From NCBI GenBank assembly GCA_963663385.2, contig CAXXXD010000003.1:192001-256000 (forward strand): 64,000 bases of DNA, read 5' to 3'. Each line of letters begins with the position of its first letter. Position 1 is the first letter of the stretch. The DNA is from Oceanispirochaeta sp. Its GTDB lineage: Bacteria > Spirochaetota > Spirochaetia > DSM-2461. The notes under the pieces were generated by a model. The model was not told the DNA's origin. It saw only the letters and a program-made list of their open reading frames with translations, and made no database searches. Positions 1-11,341 of the stretch are shown here, piece by piece. A program made the position numbers and the translations under genes.

Positions 1-1220
1 CTGTTATCCTCAAGGTAGCAGGAAACTTTCTGTTCCTGGGCTTTATTGTATTTGCCCAAAAGCAGACCTGCAACGGAAGGATCTTTAATACGGCTGTTCA
101 GTCTGGCGATCATCTCTTTTCTGTTGTGACTGATTCCGGTAATAAACTGTATGGCTTCTTCGTACTCTTCCAGCTGTATCAGTCCGGATATGGTATGGAG
201 TTTATTCAGAAACTCATGATTCTGGGCCCTCAGACCTTCATTAATCTGACGGATTCCGGTTATTTCCTCCGCCCGGGCACGCACTTCCGTCAGATCTTCC
301 ATCAGGGCTGTCGCCCCCAGCACAGCCGTACCGTGATCATCCAGAATCGGTTCAAAACGGCATTGGAGGGCCAGGCCGGAAGGGGATACCAGGTCTGTAT
401 GCAGGGCCTTTTTCAGCTCGAGGCACTGATTAAATTCTTCTTTAAAATAGTAGAGATCTACAGGCTGATTCATATCGGAACTGTTCAGCCCCGTCAGAAA
501 CCGGGCTGCCGCGTTAAAATAGACAATCCGGGCATTCTGATCTATGGTAATAATCCCTTCCTTAAGATTTTCCAGGGTCATGGCTCTCTGCCCCAGCAGA
601 CGGGATATCTCTTCCGGTTCCATACCATGCATGGACTTTTTTATATTGTAGGAGAGGATCCCGGATGAATAGATACTGATGAAAACCGCAAGGATAATAA
701 AAAGGATAAACGTATCCAGGTTAAGTCTGATATCCTGATAGATCCTGCCGTTGAGCATACCCGCAATGACAAGTCCCGCCAGTTCGCCCTGATAGTAGAC
801 CGGAGCGATGGCTTCGATGGAAGGAAGCGGGGATGAATCCAGGTGTCGTATTACCATCTCGGGATAGGGGGTCTTCAGCTGATCCAGTATAAATGGATCT
901 TTTTCACGGGTATTAAGAAAACCGGGGTAGGTATGGGCATAGTAAATCCCTTCTGCATTTATGATATGAATATACTGCGTGCGGGTTGCCAGCTTCAGTT
1001 CTTCCGCTTTCCTCTGAATGGGAATACTGCCGTTGGAGCGTGTCAGATTGAATTGAACAGCTTCCATCCCGGAAATGGTTATGGCCAGGTCCCTTGCAGA
1101 AAACTCCAGTTGTGTTTCCAGGGTGCTGAACCACTGTTTGAATACGAGTAAGCCGATCATAAGGATCATGACGGTTGTAAATAAACTGGTAGCCAGGGAT
1201 ATTTTCCGATTCAGTTTCAT
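1..1220 (-). CDS. CitA/DcuS-family sensor histidine kinase (3' part runs off the window start)
   Basis: Read by hand: ATG at 1220 (MKLNRKISLATSLF...). Two TM segments flank a Cache-like domain, then a PAS-like segment (ENLKEGIITID) and the CitA-type H-box LRAQNHEFLNKLHTISGLIQL. Absent from the ORF track because it has no stop codon in the window. Confidence 0.9.
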   Translation of the reverse strand, partial: MKLNRKISLATSLFTTVMILMIGLLVFKQWFSTLETQLEFSARDLAITISGMEAVQFNLTRSNGSIPIQRKAEELKLATRTQYIHIINAEGIYYAHTYPGFLNTREKDPFILDQLKTPYPEMVIRHLDSSPLPSIEAIAPVYYQGELAGLVIAGMLNGRIYQDIRLNLDTFILFIILAVFISIYSSGILSYNIKKSMHGMEPEEISRLLGQRAMTLENLKEGIITIDQNARIVYFNAAARFLTGLNSSDMNQPVDLYYFKEEFNQCLELKKALHTDLVSPSGLALQCRFEPILDDHGTAVLGATALMEDLTEVRARAEEITGIRQINEGLRAQNHEFLNKLHTISGLIQLEEYEEAIQFITGISHNRKEMIARLNSRIKDPSVAGLLLGKYNKAQEQKVSCYLEDN

Positions 1221-1307: not shown

Positions 1308-3029
1308 TTATTTGATATAGGCTGCAGCCTGAATTCCGGCAATTCTACCGAAGGTTGTAATATCAGCCATGGCATTTCCACCTAATCTGTTGGCGCCATG
1401 AACGCCGCCGGTAACTTCACCTGCAGCAAAGAGGCCTTTTACCCATTCGCCTGACTCATTGATAACTTTTGTTTCCGTATTAATTTTGAGTCCGCCCATG
1501 GTATGGTGAACGGCAGGTCCGACTTCTACCGCATAGAAGGGCGCCGTCGCCAGTTTCCGGGGCATATCAGGTCTGTTGAAATCAGGATCATTTCCCGCTT
1601 CTACATAAGTATTGTACTGACTTACTGTGGTTTCCAGCGCTGCTCCGTCAAGTTCCATGGCAGCTGCCAGTTCAGTCAGAGAGGCTGCTTCGGTCAGAAG
1701 CCCGGCTTTTGCATAGCTTTCAATAGCCGAGAGTGACTCCCGTACTCCCTGATCAAAAACCAGGAAGGCAGTCTTTCCGGTCTGCTCCAGCTCGGCCGCG
1801 GATACAACATCACGGGTCTGCAGCTCGGATACAAATCTTGCAGCATCCCTGTTTACAAGAATGGCGCCATTTCCGCGAACCGCTTCTGTAATCATCGTGT
1901 TCTTGACAGGCACTACTGTGGGGTGGGTCTGAATCTGTTCAATATCCACCAGCGCAACATTAAAAGGAGCAACCAGGTCAAGGGCGTCACCTGTAGCGCC
2001 GGGATGGTTTGTTGTTCCAAAGCCTTCCAGTTCAGGTTTGAAACGGACAACCTTTTCCTGACTGGCGCCGAATCCTCCGGTTGCCACTATGACAGCTTTT
2101 GCTGTGATATGATAGGTTCCTTCAGCTGTTTCAACATCAACACCATTTACACCGTTCTCATCAGCTGTAATGGCAACAACTTTACTGCCTGTGCGGATGT
2201 CCGCCACTTCTTCGGCCACTTTATCCAGAACACCGGCAACATGAGCGCCAACGCCGGCTCCGCCGGTCGGTCTGTGTGTTCTGTTATTGGATGAGCCTCC
2301 CATTCTTCCCACATCGTTAAGGTCCGCACCGAGAGATACAAGCCAGTTTACAGTCTCGGCCGATTTGGATGCCAGGACCTTTACCAGTTCGGGATCGTTC
2401 AGGTTTTTTCCACCCTTCATGGTATCATTGAAAAACTGTTCAACCGAGTCTTCGATACCCTTGGCTTTCTGCTGAGATGTTTCTGCGGCATTCAGTCCGC
2501 CTGTGGCATAGTTTGTATTACCGCCGACCAGGGGCATTTTTTCCAGCACAATAACTTTAGCGCCCGCATCGGCTGCGGCTTTTGCGGCAGAAAGACCGGC
2601 GCCCCCTGCTCCGATAATGACAACATCTGCCGAATCATCTTCCAGTTTGACTGCTGCTTCAGTTTTTGCTGAAGCGGCGCCGGCTTTTCCTGTGGAAGCC
2701 TTGGCAAGAGCGGCTTGAATGGCGGTAATCATACCGGCTGAGGTTTCGGAAGCGCCGCTGACAGCGTCAATATCACCGCTGTTGGCCTTGATGGCTTTTT
2801 CAATGAGAGTGTTCATGGGTTTGAGGCTGAATTCAGACTCGGGGTTTTCTGTTACCTCAATAGACTGGATGGCCTTTTTATCCACAGTAACGGAAACAAC
2901 GATTGTTCCGCCGTGACCCTGACCTTCTCCCAGGTAGGTTCCGGGAGTGTAAGCATCTTTGGCTCCGCAGCTCATAAAGAGGAGTGCAACCGCAGCCAGC
3001 GCACTCAAAAGGGGAATCATTTTTTTCAT
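1308..3029 (-). CDS. Lipoprotein flavocytochrome-c-family reductase (fumarate reductase-like) with N-terminal FMN-bind domain and no heme motifs
   Basis: Lipobox LFMSC, FMN-bind domain with DAVSGAS, FAD motif GAGGAG, and FccA/FrdA-type catalytic motifs QTHPT, TEAVRGNG, RD, HHTMGG and NRLGGN. Confidence 0.9.
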   Translation of the reverse strand: MKKMIPLLSALAAVALLFMSCGAKDAYTPGTYLGEGQGHGGTIVVSVTVDKKAIQSIEVTENPESEFSLKPMNTLIEKAIKANSGDIDAVSGASETSAGMITAIQAALAKASTGKAGAASAKTEAAVKLEDDSADVVIIGAGGAGLSAAKAAADAGAKVIVLEKMPLVGGNTNYATGGLNAAETSQQKAKGIEDSVEQFFNDTMKGGKNLNDPELVKVLASKSAETVNWLVSLGADLNDVGRMGGSSNNRTHRPTGGAGVGAHVAGVLDKVAEEVADIRTGSKVVAITADENGVNGVDVETAEGTYHITAKAVIVATGGFGASQEKVVRFKPELEGFGTTNHPGATGDALDLVAPFNVALVDIEQIQTHPTVVPVKNTMITEAVRGNGAILVNRDAARFVSELQTRDVVSAAELEQTGKTAFLVFDQGVRESLSAIESYAKAGLLTEAASLTELAAAMELDGAALETTVSQYNTYVEAGNDPDFNRPDMPRKLATAPFYAVEVGPAVHHTMGGLKINTETKVINESGEWVKGLFAAGEVTGGVHGANRLGGNAMADITTFGRIAGIQAAAYIK

Positions 3030-3313: not shown

Positions 3314-5332
3314 ATGAGAAAGATAGTTATTTTGGGCGGAGGATACGCAGGTGTCCATGCGGCAAAGCACTTCCATAAAGCTTTTAAAAAGAATCAGGAT
3401 GTGAAGATTACCCTGATTGACAAAAACCATCATCATACTTTGATGACAGAACTGCACGAAGTGGCGGGAGATCGGGTTCCCGATGACAGCGTCCGCATTT
3501 CCTTTGACCGGATTTTTGCCGGGACCACTGTAAATGTCGTACAGGACGAGATTGTAAAACTGGATCCTGAAGCAGGAAAACTCTATTCCGAAACTGCCGA
3601 ATACGGGTATGACTATCTGCTTATGGGAACCGGAGCCGAAACAACCGATTTCGGAATCCCCGGAATTAAAGAGCACTCCCTGCCTCTGTGGAGTTTCAAC
3701 CATGCCATCCACATCCGGGAACATGTGCGGGAGATGTTTTTCAAAGCCGCTCATGAAAAAGATGCGGAAAAACGGAAACAGTATCTGACATTTGTTGTAG
3801 CCGGATCCGGATTCACCGGAGTCGAGATGGTGGGTGAACTGATTGAGAATATCCCTGTTCTTTCTGCTGAGTATAAGGTGGATCCTGCAGAGGTTCAGCT
3901 GATCAATGTTGAGGGACTGGGGAATATTCTGAGTATGATTCCCGAAAAGCCCCGTGCCAAGGCTCAGCGTTATATGGAGAAGAAGGGTGTAAAAATCATG
4001 CTGAATTCTCTCTGTGTAAAAGCGGACGAAGGCTCCCTGACTTTGAAAGACGGTACGGTCATCAAATGCGGTACCCTGATATGGACCTGCGGAATCAAGG
4101 GCGGTTCCTTCGGGGCCTCCACAGGGCTGACTATCGGCCATGTGGACCGTCTGCAGGTTGATAAAACCATGAAGTGTCCCGACTTTGATAATATCTACCT
4201 GGCGGGGGATGCCATCTGGTTTCTGGAGGATGAACGGCCTGTTCCCCAGATTGTGGAAGCGGCAGAACAGACTGCTGCCGTTGCGGCTCACAATATTATC
4301 CGTGAAATAACAGGCAGGGGAGAAGTCAAATCATTTAAATCCAATTTTCACGGTTTTATGGTATCCATCGGCGGGCGTTACGCTGTTTCCTATACAGGCG
4401 GGGTCGCTCTGTCCGGAAAACCAGCTATGGCTCTGAAGCATCTGGTTAATGTTTACTACCTTCAAACCGTAGCGGGCGTAAATGCGTGGTGGAAGTATCT
4501 GGAACATGAAATATTCAATATCAAAAACAAACGTTCCTTTCTGGGCGGTCTGGTTGCCGGAAAGATCAACGGTTTATGGGCCGTCCTTCTGAGACTCTGG
4601 CTTGGCCTTATGTGGGTTATAGAAGGGGTGAACAAAATCGGTGAAGGCTGGTTTAACTTTGATAAGGGTTCCAGCTCCTCCTGGATGTTTTCCCAGGGGG
4701 TCATCCAGGCCGGTCTGCCTGTCGCTGATGCCGGATCAGCAGCATCGGAAGCTGCTGTGGAAACTGTTGCAGAACCTGTGACTGAAGCGGTGAGCGCGGC
4801 AAGCGGTGCGGTAGGTGAGGCTGCCCATGCCGCAGCGGAAACAGCGGCTGATGTCGTCAGCGCCGCTTCGGGAGCGGCTGACGCTGTTGTCGAGACTGTC
4901 GCCCGTACATGGGGACCTGTCTGGGATACTTCTTTAAGCATCCTGTCCTGGGATAATCCTCTGGTAACCTGGTTCCGGCAGACCTTTATGGATGGTATGG
5001 CAGCCTATATACCCTTCCAGTTCTTTCAGGTAATGGTTGTCTCTGTGGAAGTCGCACTTGGTCTTGCACTGATGGGAGGCCTTTTTACATTTCCTGCTGC
5101 GGGCGTTTCCATTATTATGTGTCTGGTCTTTATCCTTTCCGGTCTATTCAGCTGGAGTCAGCTCTGGTTTATCTTTGCGGCTATTGTGATGCTGGGCGGA
5201 GCCGGACGGAATACCGGCCTTGACTACTGGGTCATGCCCTGGCTGAAGAAATGGTGGAATGGGACATCCCTTGCCCATAAGACGTACCTGTATAAGGGTG
5301 AACCGAAAATCCGAAAAAGAAAACAGGGGTAA
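3314..5332 (+). CDS. ndh: Type II NADH dehydrogenase fused to a C-terminal DoxX-like membrane domain (Listeria Ndh2-like)
   Basis: GGGYAG and GSGFTGVE dinucleotide motifs, GD...PQIVEAAEQ, a hydrophobic C-terminal domain (LRLWLGLMW ... GAGRNTGLD) and an Ala-rich insert. Confidence 0.9.
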   Translation: MRKIVILGGGYAGVHAAKHFHKAFKKNQDVKITLIDKNHHHTLMTELHEVAGDRVPDDSVRISFDRIFAGTTVNVVQDEIVKLDPEAGKLYSETAEYGYDYLLMGTGAETTDFGIPGIKEHSLPLWSFNHAIHIREHVREMFFKAAHEKDAEKRKQYLTFVVAGSGFTGVEMVGELIENIPVLSAEYKVDPAEVQLINVEGLGNILSMIPEKPRAKAQRYMEKKGVKIMLNSLCVKADEGSLTLKDGTVIKCGTLIWTCGIKGGSFGASTGLTIGHVDRLQVDKTMKCPDFDNIYLAGDAIWFLEDERPVPQIVEAAEQTAAVAAHNIIREITGRGEVKSFKSNFHGFMVSIGGRYAVSYTGGVALSGKPAMALKHLVNVYYLQTVAGVNAWWKYLEHEIFNIKNKRSFLGGLVAGKINGLWAVLLRLWLGLMWVIEGVNKIGEGWFNFDKGSSSSWMFSQGVIQAGLPVADAGSAASEAAVETVAEPVTEAVSAASGAVGEAAHAAAETAADVVSAASGAADAVVETVARTWGPVWDTSLSILSWDNPLVTWFRQTFMDGMAAYIPFQFFQVMVVSVEVALGLALMGGLFTFPAAGVSIIMCLVFILSGLFSWSQLWFIFAAIVMLGGAGRNTGLDYWVMPWLKKWWNGTSLAHKTYLYKGEPKIRKRKQG

Positions 5333-5335
5333 TCA

Positions 5336-6304
5336 TTGTCCATCCATCCCATCTGGAAGGATTTCCCTTCTCTCCGGACTGATCTTGCAGCTGTATCGGA
5401 TCAGATCAGGAGGGTTGTGGAACAGAGTCCTGAAGCAATTAAGAATGATCTGGCCCGCCTCCTCCTGAGCAAGGGTAAAATGCTGCGTCCCGTTTTTGTC
5501 ATTTTATCTTCGGGCTGGGGAGAGGAACAGAACGAGAATCTTCCTGCTGTAGCTGCTGCTGTTGAACTGCTTCATCTTGCCTCTCTGGTACACGATGATG
5601 TTCTGGATGAGGCTGTTTCCCGCAGGGGGGTCGCCACACTTCATCAGACAATGGGCATTAAAAAGGCGGTCCTTACAGGAGATTATCTTCTGGGGGTCGC
5701 CATGAAGCTGGGGATGAGCGAATTCCGTAAAGAAAACGTTCCTGTCATGATGGAAAGCCTCAATCGTCTTCTGGAAAGTGAGATCGATCAGGATTTTTCC
5801 GGAAAGAGCATGAACATAGACCGTGAATCCTATCTAAAGCGTATTAAAGGAAAAACCGCCGAGCTTTTCGGTCTGGCCTGTATGATCGGGGCAATCGTCA
5901 GCGGATGTGAAGATGTTCTGGTCGAGAACCTTCAGAAACTGGGAATCCTTTTCGGGATGGCCTTTCAGATAGATGACGATATTCTGGACTATACGGGATC
6001 GGAAGGTCTGCTCGGAAAAAATACCGGAAAAGACCTGAAAGAGGGAATCCCGACTCTGCCTTTTATTCTGGCATTGGAAGAGGGGGATAAAAAAGTCCTG
6101 GCCTATACCGGGTCCTCTTTTCGGCGTATCTTCCCGGGATCTCTTCAGAGGTACCTTATCCGCAAGGGGTATGTGGAAAAAGCAGTAGTAATTTCAGACT
6201 CCTATAAAAAGGAAGCGGAGGAGCTTCTGCTCTCCCTGCCGGAATGCGCTTCAAAAGAGATTTTTCTCAGAGTCCTTAAGACGTTTCAGAAGCGGGACTG
6301 CTGA
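5336..6304 (+). CDS. Polyprenyl (heptaprenyl-like) diphosphate synthase catalytic subunit
   Basis: GKMLRP, first DDxxD (HDDVLD...RRG), KTA, and second DDxxD (FQIDDDILD). TTG start. Confidence 0.92.
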   Translation: MSIHPIWKDFPSLRTDLAAVSDQIRRVVEQSPEAIKNDLARLLLSKGKMLRPVFVILSSGWGEEQNENLPAVAAAVELLHLASLVHDDVLDEAVSRRGVATLHQTMGIKKAVLTGDYLLGVAMKLGMSEFRKENVPVMMESLNRLLESEIDQDFSGKSMNIDRESYLKRIKGKTAELFGLACMIGAIVSGCEDVLVENLQKLGILFGMAFQIDDDILDYTGSEGLLGKNTGKDLKEGIPTLPFILALEEGDKKVLAYTGSSFRRIFPGSLQRYLIRKGYVEKAVVISDSYKKEAEELLLSLPECASKEIFLRVLKTFQKRDC

Positions 6305-6420: not shown

Positions 6421-7035
6421 CTAGAAAAATCTCTCCAGTAATACCGACCCCCATACCAGTATTTCCAGAGGCAGAATATAGAGAAAGGCCAGAGGATAGG
6501 ATCTGCCGGTATCTGCCTCCGGCAGTTCCGGATCAGAGAGAGCTTCAGGCGGGAATATTTCCATCAGGATCCTGTCCAGACTGCCTATGAAATCCCTGGC
6601 TTTTACATGCTTTCTGCCGTCCAGTATCTCTTCAAAGTAGTAGAACATTCTGCCGAGCAATCCGCCCAGCTTTCCCGGGAATTGCAGGGACGGGGTTACT
6701 GTAAAGAGTGAGAGAAACACCAGTCCCATCAGGGTTATCCCTTTCAGGATCCCCGTTTCCAGTGAACCGTCTGTTATTGTTAAGGGACCTATCTCCCAGA
6801 GGATGCGCCCTGCGGGAGTCAGAAGATGGAAAAAGGTTATGGAGCCGGTCATCATCAGAAAGTAGATGTATCGAATCCTTTTGCCCGCAAGGGTTACCAT
6901 AATAGCAAATACAGCTACAAGAAGCAGTTTTATAATCAGCCAGTCTATAAGAAAGTATCCTGGTATCAGACTCAGTCCTGTCCAGAAACGGGCTTTGGGA
7001 GAAATGATCCGTCCCAGTTTGTCGACTTTTCTCAC
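6421..7035 (-). CDS. EcfT-like (energy-coupling factor T component-like) membrane protein
   Basis: Multi-TM protein with motif GRILWEIGPLTITDGSLETG. The likely GTG start overlaps the upstream stop (GTGA). The ORF-track extension to 7266 overlaps the upstream gene. Confidence 0.6.
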   Translation of the reverse strand: MRKVDKLGRIISPKARFWTGLSLIPGYFLIDWLIIKLLLVAVFAIMVTLAGKRIRYIYFLMMTGSITFFHLLTPAGRILWEIGPLTITDGSLETGILKGITLMGLVFLSLFTVTPSLQFPGKLGGLLGRMFYYFEEILDGRKHVKARDFIGSLDRILMEIFPPEALSDPELPEADTGRSYPLAFLYILPLEILVWGSVLLERFF

Positions 7036-7580
7036 AGGGACTCCCTCATCTGCGCCCACCAGAGGGACTTTTCGGAAAACCGCTGGGCAAACAGACCGAT
7101 AAACAGTCCCGACACGAGTCCGATTCCCAGAAACAGCGGAAGGATACGCCAGGCGGACATCCCGAAGATGAATGTTATGGAGAGTGTTATCTGGGCCATG
7201 TTGCTGACAAGGGCCCCCAGTACGCTTATGCCTATAAAGGAGATATACGGAGTCAGATAATGCCACGCCAGGAACATTATAATCCCGCTTGCTAACGATC
7301 CGCTCAGGGAAAACAGAAAAATATAGGAAGCCATAGTCCCGTTAACCATTCCCTGGCCGAGCACCTTGAGCAGTATCAGCAGAAAATAGGAAGCCATCGG
7401 CAGCACGTGGGGATCCCCCTTTTTACGGGGAAGGAGATCCAGCGCCAGGATAACAGGCAGGTTGGCCAACCCCAGACGCATAAAGGGAATGGGACGGGGA
7501 AAAAGGTACTCCACTGTGGATAGGAAGAGACTGAGGGAACCCAGCATGGCAATACGGTTCAGCTGTTTTTCAGTAAACAT
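7032..7580 (-). CDS. Gx transporter / heptaprenyl diphosphate synthase component I family membrane protein (EetB-like)
   Basis: Signature EYLFPRPIPFMRLGLAN and SVLGALVSNMAQ. AGGAGG RBS lies upstream of ATG 7580 (alternative start 7586). Confidence 0.85.
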   Translation of the reverse strand: MFTEKQLNRIAMLGSLSLFLSTVEYLFPRPIPFMRLGLANLPVILALDLLPRKKGDPHVLPMASYFLLILLKVLGQGMVNGTMASYIFLFSLSGSLASGIIMFLAWHYLTPYISFIGISVLGALVSNMAQITLSITFIFGMSAWRILPLFLGIGLVSGLFIGLFAQRFSEKSLWWAQMRESL

Positions 7581-7935
7581 CGGCATCCACCTCCTGTTTC
7601 TCTCCGCCGTCAATATACAGGAATACCTCATTGGGCAGACAGGCTGCCCACTCCCCCGATTCTGAGATCTGTCCCATGTGGACACAGAGGTTGTCGTCAC
7701 AGTCTGAATGGATAAAGGCTGCCTTTCCTTCGGAAATCTGAATAACCGATTCCCCGACAGGGCCCCGTACATGAATCTCCCTGTCTTCCGAGAGAGGGTA
7801 GAGGGCTACCCCGTCTCTGTCTTCAATGTATAAATAACCGCTGTCGCCGGATCTGTTCCACCCATACCAGGTAAAAACGGAAAAGATCAGAAGCGAAAGT
7901 AGTATAGCGGCAATATCATATCTGCGTATCTTCAT
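7570..7935 (-). CDS. NusG domain II-containing (DUF1312, EetA-like) membrane-anchored protein
   Basis: N-terminal TM followed by SDCDDNLCVHMGQIS...ACLPNEV. Confidence 0.88.
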   Translation of the reverse strand: MKIRRYDIAAILLSLLIFSVFTWYGWNRSGDSGYLYIEDRDGVALYPLSEDREIHVRGPVGESVIQISEGKAAFIHSDCDDNLCVHMGQISESGEWAACLPNEVFLYIDGGEKQEVDADVY

Positions 7936-10828: not shown

Positions 10829-11341
10829 ATGAACAGTAAATACTTTTTGATAGTTATGATTGCCCTTTTAAGCGCTGGAATATTTGCGGATGATTTCGGA
10901 TCGGCAGGAGCTCTGGATAAGAGAAACTTTGATCTTGAGGAGATGATGCGTTACGCCTGGGAAGATGAGCATATGGCTCTGGCGGAATATGAGGCTATTA
11001 TGGATAAATTCAAGGTTGACCGTCCTTACGCCAATATCGCCCGGTCTGAGGAGACTCATATCGCTCTGCTGACCGAACTGTATGAAGCCCATGGTCTGCC
11101 CCTTCCTTCAGTTAATGTAAAAGGTCATATGGTTCTGCCTTCCAGTCTGGAGGAAGCTGCTGAAATCGGCGTTAAGGCCGAGATTAACAATATTGATATG
11201 TATGAGCTTTTTCTGAAGAACGATCTGCCTGCCGATGTAGCCGAAGTATTTGAACTGTTAAAGGCAGGATCGGAGAAGCATCTGGACGCCTTTGAAAGAC
11301 AGCTGGAAAACCCCGCCGGCAGCGGACGCCGGCGCAGTTGA
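10829..11341 (+). CDS. Exported ferritin-like (DUF2202-type) protein
   Basis: Signal peptide and paired ExxH motifs (EDEHMA..EY, SEETH, EINNIDMY, SEKH). GGAGG RBS. Confidence 0.75.
   Translation: MNSKYFLIVMIALLSAGIFADDFGSAGALDKRNFDLEEMMRYAWEDEHMALAEYEAIMDKFKVDRPYANIARSEETHIALLTELYEAHGLPLPSVNVKGHMVLPSSLEEAAEIGVKAEINNIDMYELFLKNDLPADVAEVFELLKAGSEKHLDAFERQLENPAGSGRRRS

Follow-up and report, generated by a model that had tools for sequence, protein, structure and literature searches.

Does the outer loop of a membrane-bound NADH dehydrogenase carry covalently attached flavin mononucleotide (FMN)? The question is raised by an ndh2-type gene in a 64,000-nucleotide stretch of Oceanispirochaeta sp. 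DNA (GenBank assembly GCA_963663385.2, contig CAXXXD010000003.1, positions 192,001 to 256,000 of the forward strand), referred to here as the window. The product of this gene, P0001, joins a type II NADH dehydrogenase (NDH-2) to a C-terminal membrane domain, and the long loop between the first two transmembrane (TM) helices of that domain holds three copies of a heptapeptide resembling the target motif of ApbE, D-x-x-[S/T]-G-A-[S/T], with Ala in the place of Gly. A previous sequence-only reading of the window had interpreted the loop as a flexible, multi-FMN wire that is built into the dehydrogenase, stands in for a separate PplA and hands electrons to the reductase encoded next door. Here, we report that the motif cluster is genuine, is not a product of chance and has been conserved across phyla, and we weigh ApbE-dependent flavinylation of the loop against other explanations of that conservation.

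The properties of ApbE-type sites have been summarized in a review (PMC12052999), according to which seven residues suffice as a flavinylation motif, and no FMN_bind fold is needed for such a tag to work at a protein terminus or, though less well, in a surface loop. In the same review's account of Bertsova 2019 and Tong 2021, changing the acceptor Thr to Ala abolishes flavinylation and changing Asp to Ala alters it little, ~50% flavinylation remains after either a Gly-to-Ala or an Ala-to-Val substitution, and Ser is accepted as the flavin acceptor, less well than Thr (PMC12052999). According to other reports, the substrates DUF2271 and DUF3570 were discovered by guilt-by-association (PMC8238504), and FMN_red bears its flavinylation site on an unstructured extension (PMC11334425). 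Multi-flavinylated proteins with several FMN_bind domains have been described together with the idea of a multi-cofactor electron relay (Meheust et al. 2021, PMC8238504). In the field of extracellular electron transfer (EET), Listeria EetB and FmnA are described as reassigned to the export of flavin adenine dinucleotide (FAD), which feeds ApbE-type flavinylation, with EetB as the substrate-binding subunit (PMC9973259). One account of Enterococcus faecalis states that EetB is required and PplA is not, and describes the proteins acting after reduced demethylmenaquinone as unidentified (PMC9864754); for anode reduction by Lactiplantibacillus plantarum, Ndh2 is described as required and PplA as only conditionally required (PMC8837199). 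A literature search with subscription journals and supplements outside its scope returned no description of a flavinylation site in Ndh2, and neither PMC8238504 nor PMC11334425 contains the term "Ndh2" (0 occurrences in each).

Results

P0001 is composed of an NDH-2 catalytic domain followed by a DoxX-like membrane domain of four helices. Pfam Pyr_redox_2 covers residues 3-320 (E 1.8e-33), and residues 3-391 match a solved NDH-2 (PDB 4NWZ, E 4.5e-64); residues 392-672 gave no match among solved structures. The Pfam DoxX score for the C-terminal part is 26.9 bits vs. a cut-off of 23.6, with the best stretch at residues 563-608 and no single stretch passing the cut-off alone, and many homologs of P0001 bear precomputed DoxX or DoxD matches. 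Hydropathy and an AlphaFold2 model built from 108 sequences (mean pLDDT 88, pTM 0.81) give TM helices at residues 422-443, 568-588, 592-608 and ~612-632, the last of these being modeled as a helix at 618-626. Since the NDH-2 domain must be cytoplasmic, the C-terminal tail is basic and there are four TM helices, the positive-inside rule predicts that the TM1-TM2 loop is periplasmic. Charge counts are in line with this prediction, with 4 Lys and Arg residues in segment 395-421 ahead of TM1, and 15 Asp and Glu vs. 3 Lys and Arg residues in the loop itself. The loop is thus predicted to be extracytoplasmic, as the sequence-only reading requires. The flanks of the loop were modeled with pLDDT values of 84-92 and the motif-bearing insert (residues 473-531) with values below 50.

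Translation of nucleotides 3314-5332 (plus strand) placed DAGSAAS, EAVSAAS and DVVSAAS in this loop, roughly 20 residues apart, just where the sequence-only reading had put them (Table 1); the terminal Ser residues of consecutive copies are separated by 19 and 22 residues. Numbering from that Ser as position 0, the copies match the ApbE motif at the acidic position -6 (D, E and D), at -3 (Ser in all three), and at -1 and 0 (Ala followed by Ser in 3/3), so the likeness to the ApbE motif with Ala for Gly holds at every other position. The canonical DAVSGAS attributed to the neighboring reductase was also found there by sequence scan. P0001 gave no Pfam match to PF04205 (FMN_bind), and its candidate sites lie outside any FMN_bind fold.

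The three copies do not share a DNA repeat. Their codons are GAT GCC GGA TCA GCA GCA TCG, GAA GCG GTG AGC GCG GCA AGC and GAT GTC GTC AGC GCC GCT TCG in copies 1, 2 and 3, respectively, with Ser drawn from both the TCN and the AGY codon classes, and Tandem Repeats Finder returned no DNA repeat scoring at least 30 in nucleotides 4600-5000. These data agree with the sequence-only reading, in which differing synonymous codons were taken to make slippage unlikely. Within the 67-residue variable core of the loop, all 6 Ser residues fall inside the three SAAS tetrapeptides. When this core was shuffled 100,000 times with its composition preserved, no shuffle contained three copies of the motif, written either as [DE]xxSAAS or as [DE]xx[ST][GA]A[ST]; the maximum was two copies, reached in 50 shuffles. 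In a six-frame scan of the 5.3-Mb genome (open stretches of at least 100 residues), the ndh2-type gene was the sole open reading frame (ORF) with at least two [DE]xx[STA]AA[ST] motifs within 120 residues.

Conservation was analyzed in the best 120 of 607 homolog matches, which include proteins of Oceanispirochaeta, Sediminispirochaeta, Marispirochaeta, Treponema and Spirochaetales metagenome-assembled genomes. The loops of these homologs range from 87 to 205 residues and are otherwise variable in sequence. The broad motif [DE]xx[STA][GAS]A[ST] was nevertheless present in 119/120 homologs, with 357 copies, compared with 19.3 on average and at most 34 over 200 shuffles, and the narrower form [DE]xx[ST][GA]A[ST] in 109/120, with 302 copies vs. 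a shuffle mean of 5.0. Between 0 and 7 copies of the narrower motif occur per homolog. An alignment of homologs, which the sequence-only reading had proposed as a check on its claim, therefore bore out both conservation of the motif and variation in its copy number. A logo was compiled from 335 occurrences in the 120 homologs, anchored only on [ST][AGS]A[ST]. Position -6 was Asp in 59% and Glu in 32% of copies (background for both together, 14%), positions -3 (Ser or Thr) and -1 (Ala) were at 100% as fixed by the anchor, position 0 was Ser in 75% and Thr in 25%, and position +1 was Gly, Asp or Glu in 86%. Judged by sequence, this logo is the ApbE motif D-x-x-[S/T]-G-A-[S/T] with Ala replacing Gly. 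Canonical-type tetrapeptides (SGAS, TGAT or SGAT) are rare in spirochete loops, accounting for 7/335 copies; one loop (L051) bears both GDASGAT and EEVSGAT. A separate feature of the alignment is a Trp at +3 after the site in 16% of copies, as in SAASGAW and AAATEW.

More distant relatives were collected by a profile-free exhaustive search of 1.84 billion representatives, which gave 175 clusters with E ≤ 1e-3. Many distant members carry the motif in the TM1-TM2 loop, often in the canonical form (e.g., DTTSGAS, EATSGAS, DAASGAT, EAVTGAT and DATTGAS). Both helix anchors were found in 39 of 149 representatives, 32 of which have the seven-residue motif, and some representatives, such as P0133, P0193 and P0196, are without any motif. 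Using P0160 as the query, we reached a Clostridia group (Clostridium paraputrificum, Romboutsia and Peptostreptococcaceae), in which 112/120 proteins have the motif in the TM1-TM2 loop, mostly canonical (DAVSGAS 17, DATSGAS 10 and DSGASAS 56). In the Halanaerobiales (Halanaerobacter, Orenia metallireducens and Halobacteroides), loops were extracted from 20 of 23 proteins, and L[VI]SGAS was present in 20/20. In both groups, the TM1-TM2 loop holds one site only, mostly of the canonical SGAS type.

The Oceanispirochaeta genome has a single ApbE match, whose open frame starts MKKNFRIISLYISILLLAVSCGK and includes a lipoprotein signal; an FMN_bind open frame close to it is a putative RnfG. No apbE/fmnB and no pplA gene is present in the window. 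The bona fide FMN_bind-type sites of the genome belong to six PF04205 matches, one of them with two sites. The arrangement of apbE was also compared among related loci; a single-protein scan for such loci gave 7, and the set examined for synteny by tblastn comprised 22. In all 22, the polyprenyl synthase gene adjoins ndh2, and the reductase gene does so in one (L008). The apbE gene adjoins the ndh2/polyprenyl-synthase pair in 5/22 loci (L012, L037, L039, L044 and L046), from which 49 ORFs were analyzed with Pfam. The order in L012 is ApbE <-> Ndh2 - polyprenyl synthase, with an upstream NusG_II-like stretch detected by tblastn only, and in L037 and L039 it is NusG_II - ApbE <-> Ndh2 - polyprenyl synthase. 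L046 (4903-11680, minus strand) encodes, co-directionally, a UbiA prenyltransferase, a UbiD decarboxylase, ApbE, a polyprenyl synthase and an Ndh2 whose loop contains seven x-x-V-T-A-A-S-G-A units; this apparent operon ties together quinone biosynthesis, ApbE and Ndh2. Loop sequences were examined for 15 of 20 loci (L043 and L047 excluded) plus L037, L039 and L046.

Other candidate substrates of ApbE were then sought beside these apbE genes. An FMN_bind protein is present in locus L044. In L012, L037, L039 and L046, no FMN_bind match was obtained among the ORFs scanned within ~6 kb, and canonical Dxx[ST]GA[ST] was absent from all six-frame ORFs of at least 60 residues across the whole of these four sequences. 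In three of the sampled genomes (G332, G371 and G225), the listed coordinates place the one apbE match of the genome beside ndh2 or beside its synthase neighbor; the single match in G380 lies outside the rows listed. A complex prediction for mature ApbE, FAD and Mg with loop residues 462-535 gave a score of 0.00 and, having been run without controls, is neutral on binding.

Discussion

The explanation that we favor, at a probability of roughly 0.55, is that ApbE covalently attaches FMN to the outward-facing loop of this EET-type Ndh2, which would then pass quinol electrons outward. According to this scheme, the cytoplasmic NDH-2 domain would transfer electrons from NADH through FAD to demethylmenaquinone, the EetB-type transporter encoded next door would export FAD, and the periplasmic lipoprotein ApbE would use it to form a phosphoester bond between FMN and the final Ser of each site (Ser478, Ser497 and Ser519). 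The covalent flavins would be reduced by quinol at the DoxX-like domain, where a quinone site would be expected from the family name and by analogy with thiosulfate:quinone oxidoreductase, and the loop flavins would in turn reduce periplasmic flavinylated reductases, such as the neighboring FMN_bind/FAD_binding_2 lipoprotein. We infer all three parts of this route: that FMN becomes attached, that the DoxX-like domain oxidizes quinol and that the reductase receives the electrons.

A more far-reaching proposal, which we advance tentatively and consider doubtful as it stands, is that EET-type Ndh2 is a self-contained transmembrane conduit. Here, the DoxX-like domain would re-oxidize quinol and the outer-loop FMN would link quinol to extracytosolic flavoproteins or acceptors, with one site in Clostridia and Halanaerobiales and, in spirochetes, as many as seven arrayed along a helical stalk. 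Such a conduit, if true, would explain reports that the FAD exporter is required for EET but PplA is dispensable in some organisms.

Several observations weigh against flavinylation of the loop. One is position -2, where Ala stands in 3/3 copies in P0001 in place of Gly, a residue that helps to define the published ApbE motif, and where the spirochete logo is Ala in 96%, Gly in 2% and Ser in 2% of copies. The FMN_bind sites elsewhere in the genome (DSISGAT, DTITGAT, DAVSGAT, DAISGAS, DAVSGAS, DTVSGAT and DGITGAS) all have Gly at -2; Ala in the Ndh2 loop is thus a systematic feature that could point to a function other than flavinylation. In addition, 10/120 homologs match only the broad motif and have Ala at -3 (D..AAA[ST]). 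The single apbE gene lies on the same contig as ndh2 but outside the window, ~1.4 Mb away. Co-occurrence with ApbE gives weak support to flavinylation: the Ndh2 C-terminal domain was found in 16/401 sampled genomes of the phylum, and ApbE in 16/16 of these vs. 293/401 overall, but 73% of all genomes sampled have ApbE, and genomes that are related do not count as independent. The periodicity of the insert also points in another direction. Averaged over 46 low-redundancy loops, the hydrophobic-moment spectrum peaks at 100 degrees per residue (45.7 vs. 6.2 in shuffles, z = 50), and 238 site spacings with a median of 18 peak at 11, 14/15, 18 and 22. Given the sharpness of the 100-degree peak, the insert is built as an amphipathic alpha-helix, in which a hydrophobic stripe takes in positions -8, -4, -1 and +3 (counted from the acceptor). 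Such periodicity suits a stalk or a coiled coil, perhaps one formed within a dimer, and a helical structural element could explain part of the motif conservation. Helicity and flavinylation are, however, compatible with each other.

The same observations narrow the interpretation offered by the sequence-only reading, which is partly supported overall. Its proposal that the insert stands in for a separate PplA is weakened because a PplA-like candidate is encoded elsewhere in the genome, off the ndh2 locus: a secreted protein of 261 residues (C2:879466-880248, minus strand) with the sites DAVSGAT and DAISGAS. Its flexible wire is consistent with the low pLDDT of the insert and at odds with the strong amphipathic-helix periodicity, which weakens the claim.

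Chief among the alternatives is that the insert serves a structural purpose as an amphipathic helix and bears no flavin; it could be the coiled-coil stalk of an NDH-2 dimer, a helix lying on the surface or an arm that docks periplasmic partners. The motif D-A-V-S-A-A-S-G would then join or cap helices, bind a protein, or be the target of a different modification, such as O-glycosylation or phosphorylation. We regard this as unlikely on balance, though it is the competitor to be taken most seriously. The helical periodicity and site spacings described above speak for it, as do the systematic replacement of a Gly that the true FMN_bind sites of the genome retain, the prevalence of Gly, Asp or Glu at +1 and the absence of an FMN_bind fold. 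On the other hand, the positions that are kept, namely Asp or Glu at -6, Ala at -1 and Ser or Thr at 0, are those of ApbE recognition. Relatives whose loops are short and lack the array show a lone canonical SGAS-type site at this place, and apbE lies beside ndh2 in loci that have no other candidate substrate; a purely structural repeat would leave all three observations unexplained.

A less probable alternative, to which we give little weight, is that the Ala-variant sites are relics of an ancestral, flavinylated canonical site, which may still be modified in Clostridia and Halanaerobiales, with the duplicated spirochete copies poorly modified or not modified at all and the insert serving mainly as a spacer. 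Canonical sites dominate the distant groups and Ala variants dominate the spirochetes, as this would predict, and Gly-to-Ala lowers flavinylation in one mutational test as reported in PMC12052999. However, relics would be expected to drift, yet positions -6, -1 and 0 are nearly invariant over 335 copies amid freely diverging loops, Ser has been kept across switches between TCN and AGY codons, and the copy number has expanded to as many as 7. Finally, chance arising from Ala/Ser/Val/Glu low complexity (the region is 37% Ala) and recent DNA slippage were both ruled out and retain a negligible probability, the former by the shuffles, by conservation in 119/120 homologs and by the uniqueness of the cluster in the genome, and the latter by the differing codons and the lack of a tandem repeat.

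If FMN is indeed attached to these sites, Ndh2 would differ in several respects from the substrates of ApbE described so far. The three copies have the same seven-residue register as the ApbE/FmnB sites of FMN_bind proteins (NqrC, RnfG, PplA, and extracytosolic fumarate and urocanate reductases) and of the newer substrates DUF2271, DUF3570, Flavodoxin_4 and FMN_red, and, like those sites, they are predicted to lie in the extracytosolic compartment of lipoprotein ApbE. Unlike known substrates, P0001 and its close homologs have Ala for Gly at -2 in the great majority of copies, and their sites are multiple, situated in an acidic, amphipathic-helical insert within a loop of the dehydrogenase's membrane domain and not in a soluble flavin-binding fold. 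Multi-flavinylated proteins likewise display several covalent-FMN sites on one extracytosolic stretch of polypeptide, but they are defined by a series of folded PF04205 domains ("beads on a string"), in contrast to the closely spaced seven-residue candidate sites of the Ndh2 loop.

The architecture itself has precedents. Like Ndh2 of the flavin-based EET (FLEET) systems of Listeria monocytogenes and L. plantarum, and Ndh3 of E. faecalis, P0001 combines an NDH-2 with a C-terminal membrane domain; Light and coworkers reportedly described Listeria Ndh2 in 2018 as having such an extra domain. As in FLEET loci, DmkB-like, EetA-like and EetB-like genes are clustered in the window with a gene for an extracytosolic reductase of the flavinylated type. 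This likeness is one of domain layout and gene neighborhood, and, unlike in FLEET loci, the host is a spirochete with a periplasm, and apbE and the PplA-like gene are located outside the locus. The Ndh2 C-terminal domain also resembles the quinone-associated DoxX/DoxD proteins (PF07681/PF04173) in having four TM helices, but differs from them in being fused to NDH-2 and in having TM1 and TM2 interrupted by a periplasmic loop of ~124 residues.

A flavinylated outer loop, if true, would supply the unassigned carrier step from reduced demethylmenaquinone to extracytosolic flavoproteins. A membrane dehydrogenase would then join the substrates of ApbE, and the recognition motif would have to admit Ala or Ser at position -2, in which case motif-based surveys would need revision.

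Other Genes of the Locus

Table 1. Coordinates (in the window) of the ndh2-type gene, its parts and the neighboring genes.
Feature	Position	Strand	Remarks
ndh2-type gene, P0001 (672 residues)	3314..5332	+	NDH-2 catalytic domain and C-terminal four-helix DoxX-like membrane domain
TM1, residues 422-443	4577..4642	+	Hydropathy and AlphaFold2 helix
TM1-TM2 loop, residues 444-567 (124 residues)	4643..5014	+	Predicted periplasmic; acidic
Motif copy 1, DAGSAAS, residues 472-478	4727..4747	+	Candidate FMN acceptor Ser478
Motif copy 2, EAVSAAS, residues 491-497	4784..4804	+	Candidate FMN acceptor Ser497
Motif copy 3, DVVSAAS, residues 513-519	4850..4870	+	Candidate FMN acceptor Ser519
TM2-TM4, residues 568-632	5015..5209	+	Hydropathy, AlphaFold2 helices, Pfam DoxX part
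Basic C-terminal tail (9 K+R in 40 residues)	5210..5329	+	Predicted cytoplasmic
Flavocytochrome-c-family reductase, lipoprotein-type, N-terminal FMN_bind	1308..3029	-	N-terminus ...LLFMSCGAK
Canonical DAVSGAS in reductase, residues 88-94	2748-2768	-	Sequence scan
Sensor histidine-kinase-like ORF (sCache_3_2, PAS, SPOB_a), adjoining the reductase gene	3-1220	-	
Polyprenyl diphosphate synthase, DmkB-like position	5336..6304	+	Pfam polyprenyl_synt E 4.7e-57
Possible ECF-T (FmnA-like) membrane protein, weak match	6421..6966	-	Pfam CbiQ E 0.01, 15.9 bits, below cut-off 25
EetB-like protein (PF07456, Hpre_diP_synt_I)	7032..7586	-	Pfam E 5.7e-30
EetA-like NusG_II-domain protein	7570..7935	-	Pfam NusG_II E 1e-21
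Small DUF2202/rubrerythrin-like protein	10829-11341	+	Hydrophobic N-terminus; apparently unrelated to Ndh2 motifs

The genes on both sides of ndh2 are listed in Table 1. The reductase matches Pfam FMN_bind (E 3e-11) and FAD_binding_2 (E 3.7e-85) as well as NCBIfam TIGR01813 (488.7 bits), and its adjacency to the kinase-like ORF recurs in L008, the nearest relative (61% identity). The NusG_II domain corresponds to EetA. In L044, a homolog of the possible energy-coupling factor (ECF) T protein adjoins EetA-like and EetB-like genes.

The minus-strand ORFs of this cluster overlap when taken at their longest. Those at 6421-7266 and 7032-7772 share 235 nucleotides in different frames, and the longest EetB-like ORF overlaps the NusG_II ORF by ~200 nucleotides. 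Their true starts probably lie internally, and the start codon of the EetB-like gene was picked so as not to overlap the upstream ORF.

A paralogous reductase of the FMN_bind/FAD type is encoded ~29 kb past the end of the window (C3:284966-286738, minus strand), with DTVSGAT in its FMN_bind domain. Its linker, just ahead of the GxGxxG of the FAD domain, contains DAVSAAT, an Ala variant of the kind seen in the Ndh2 loop.

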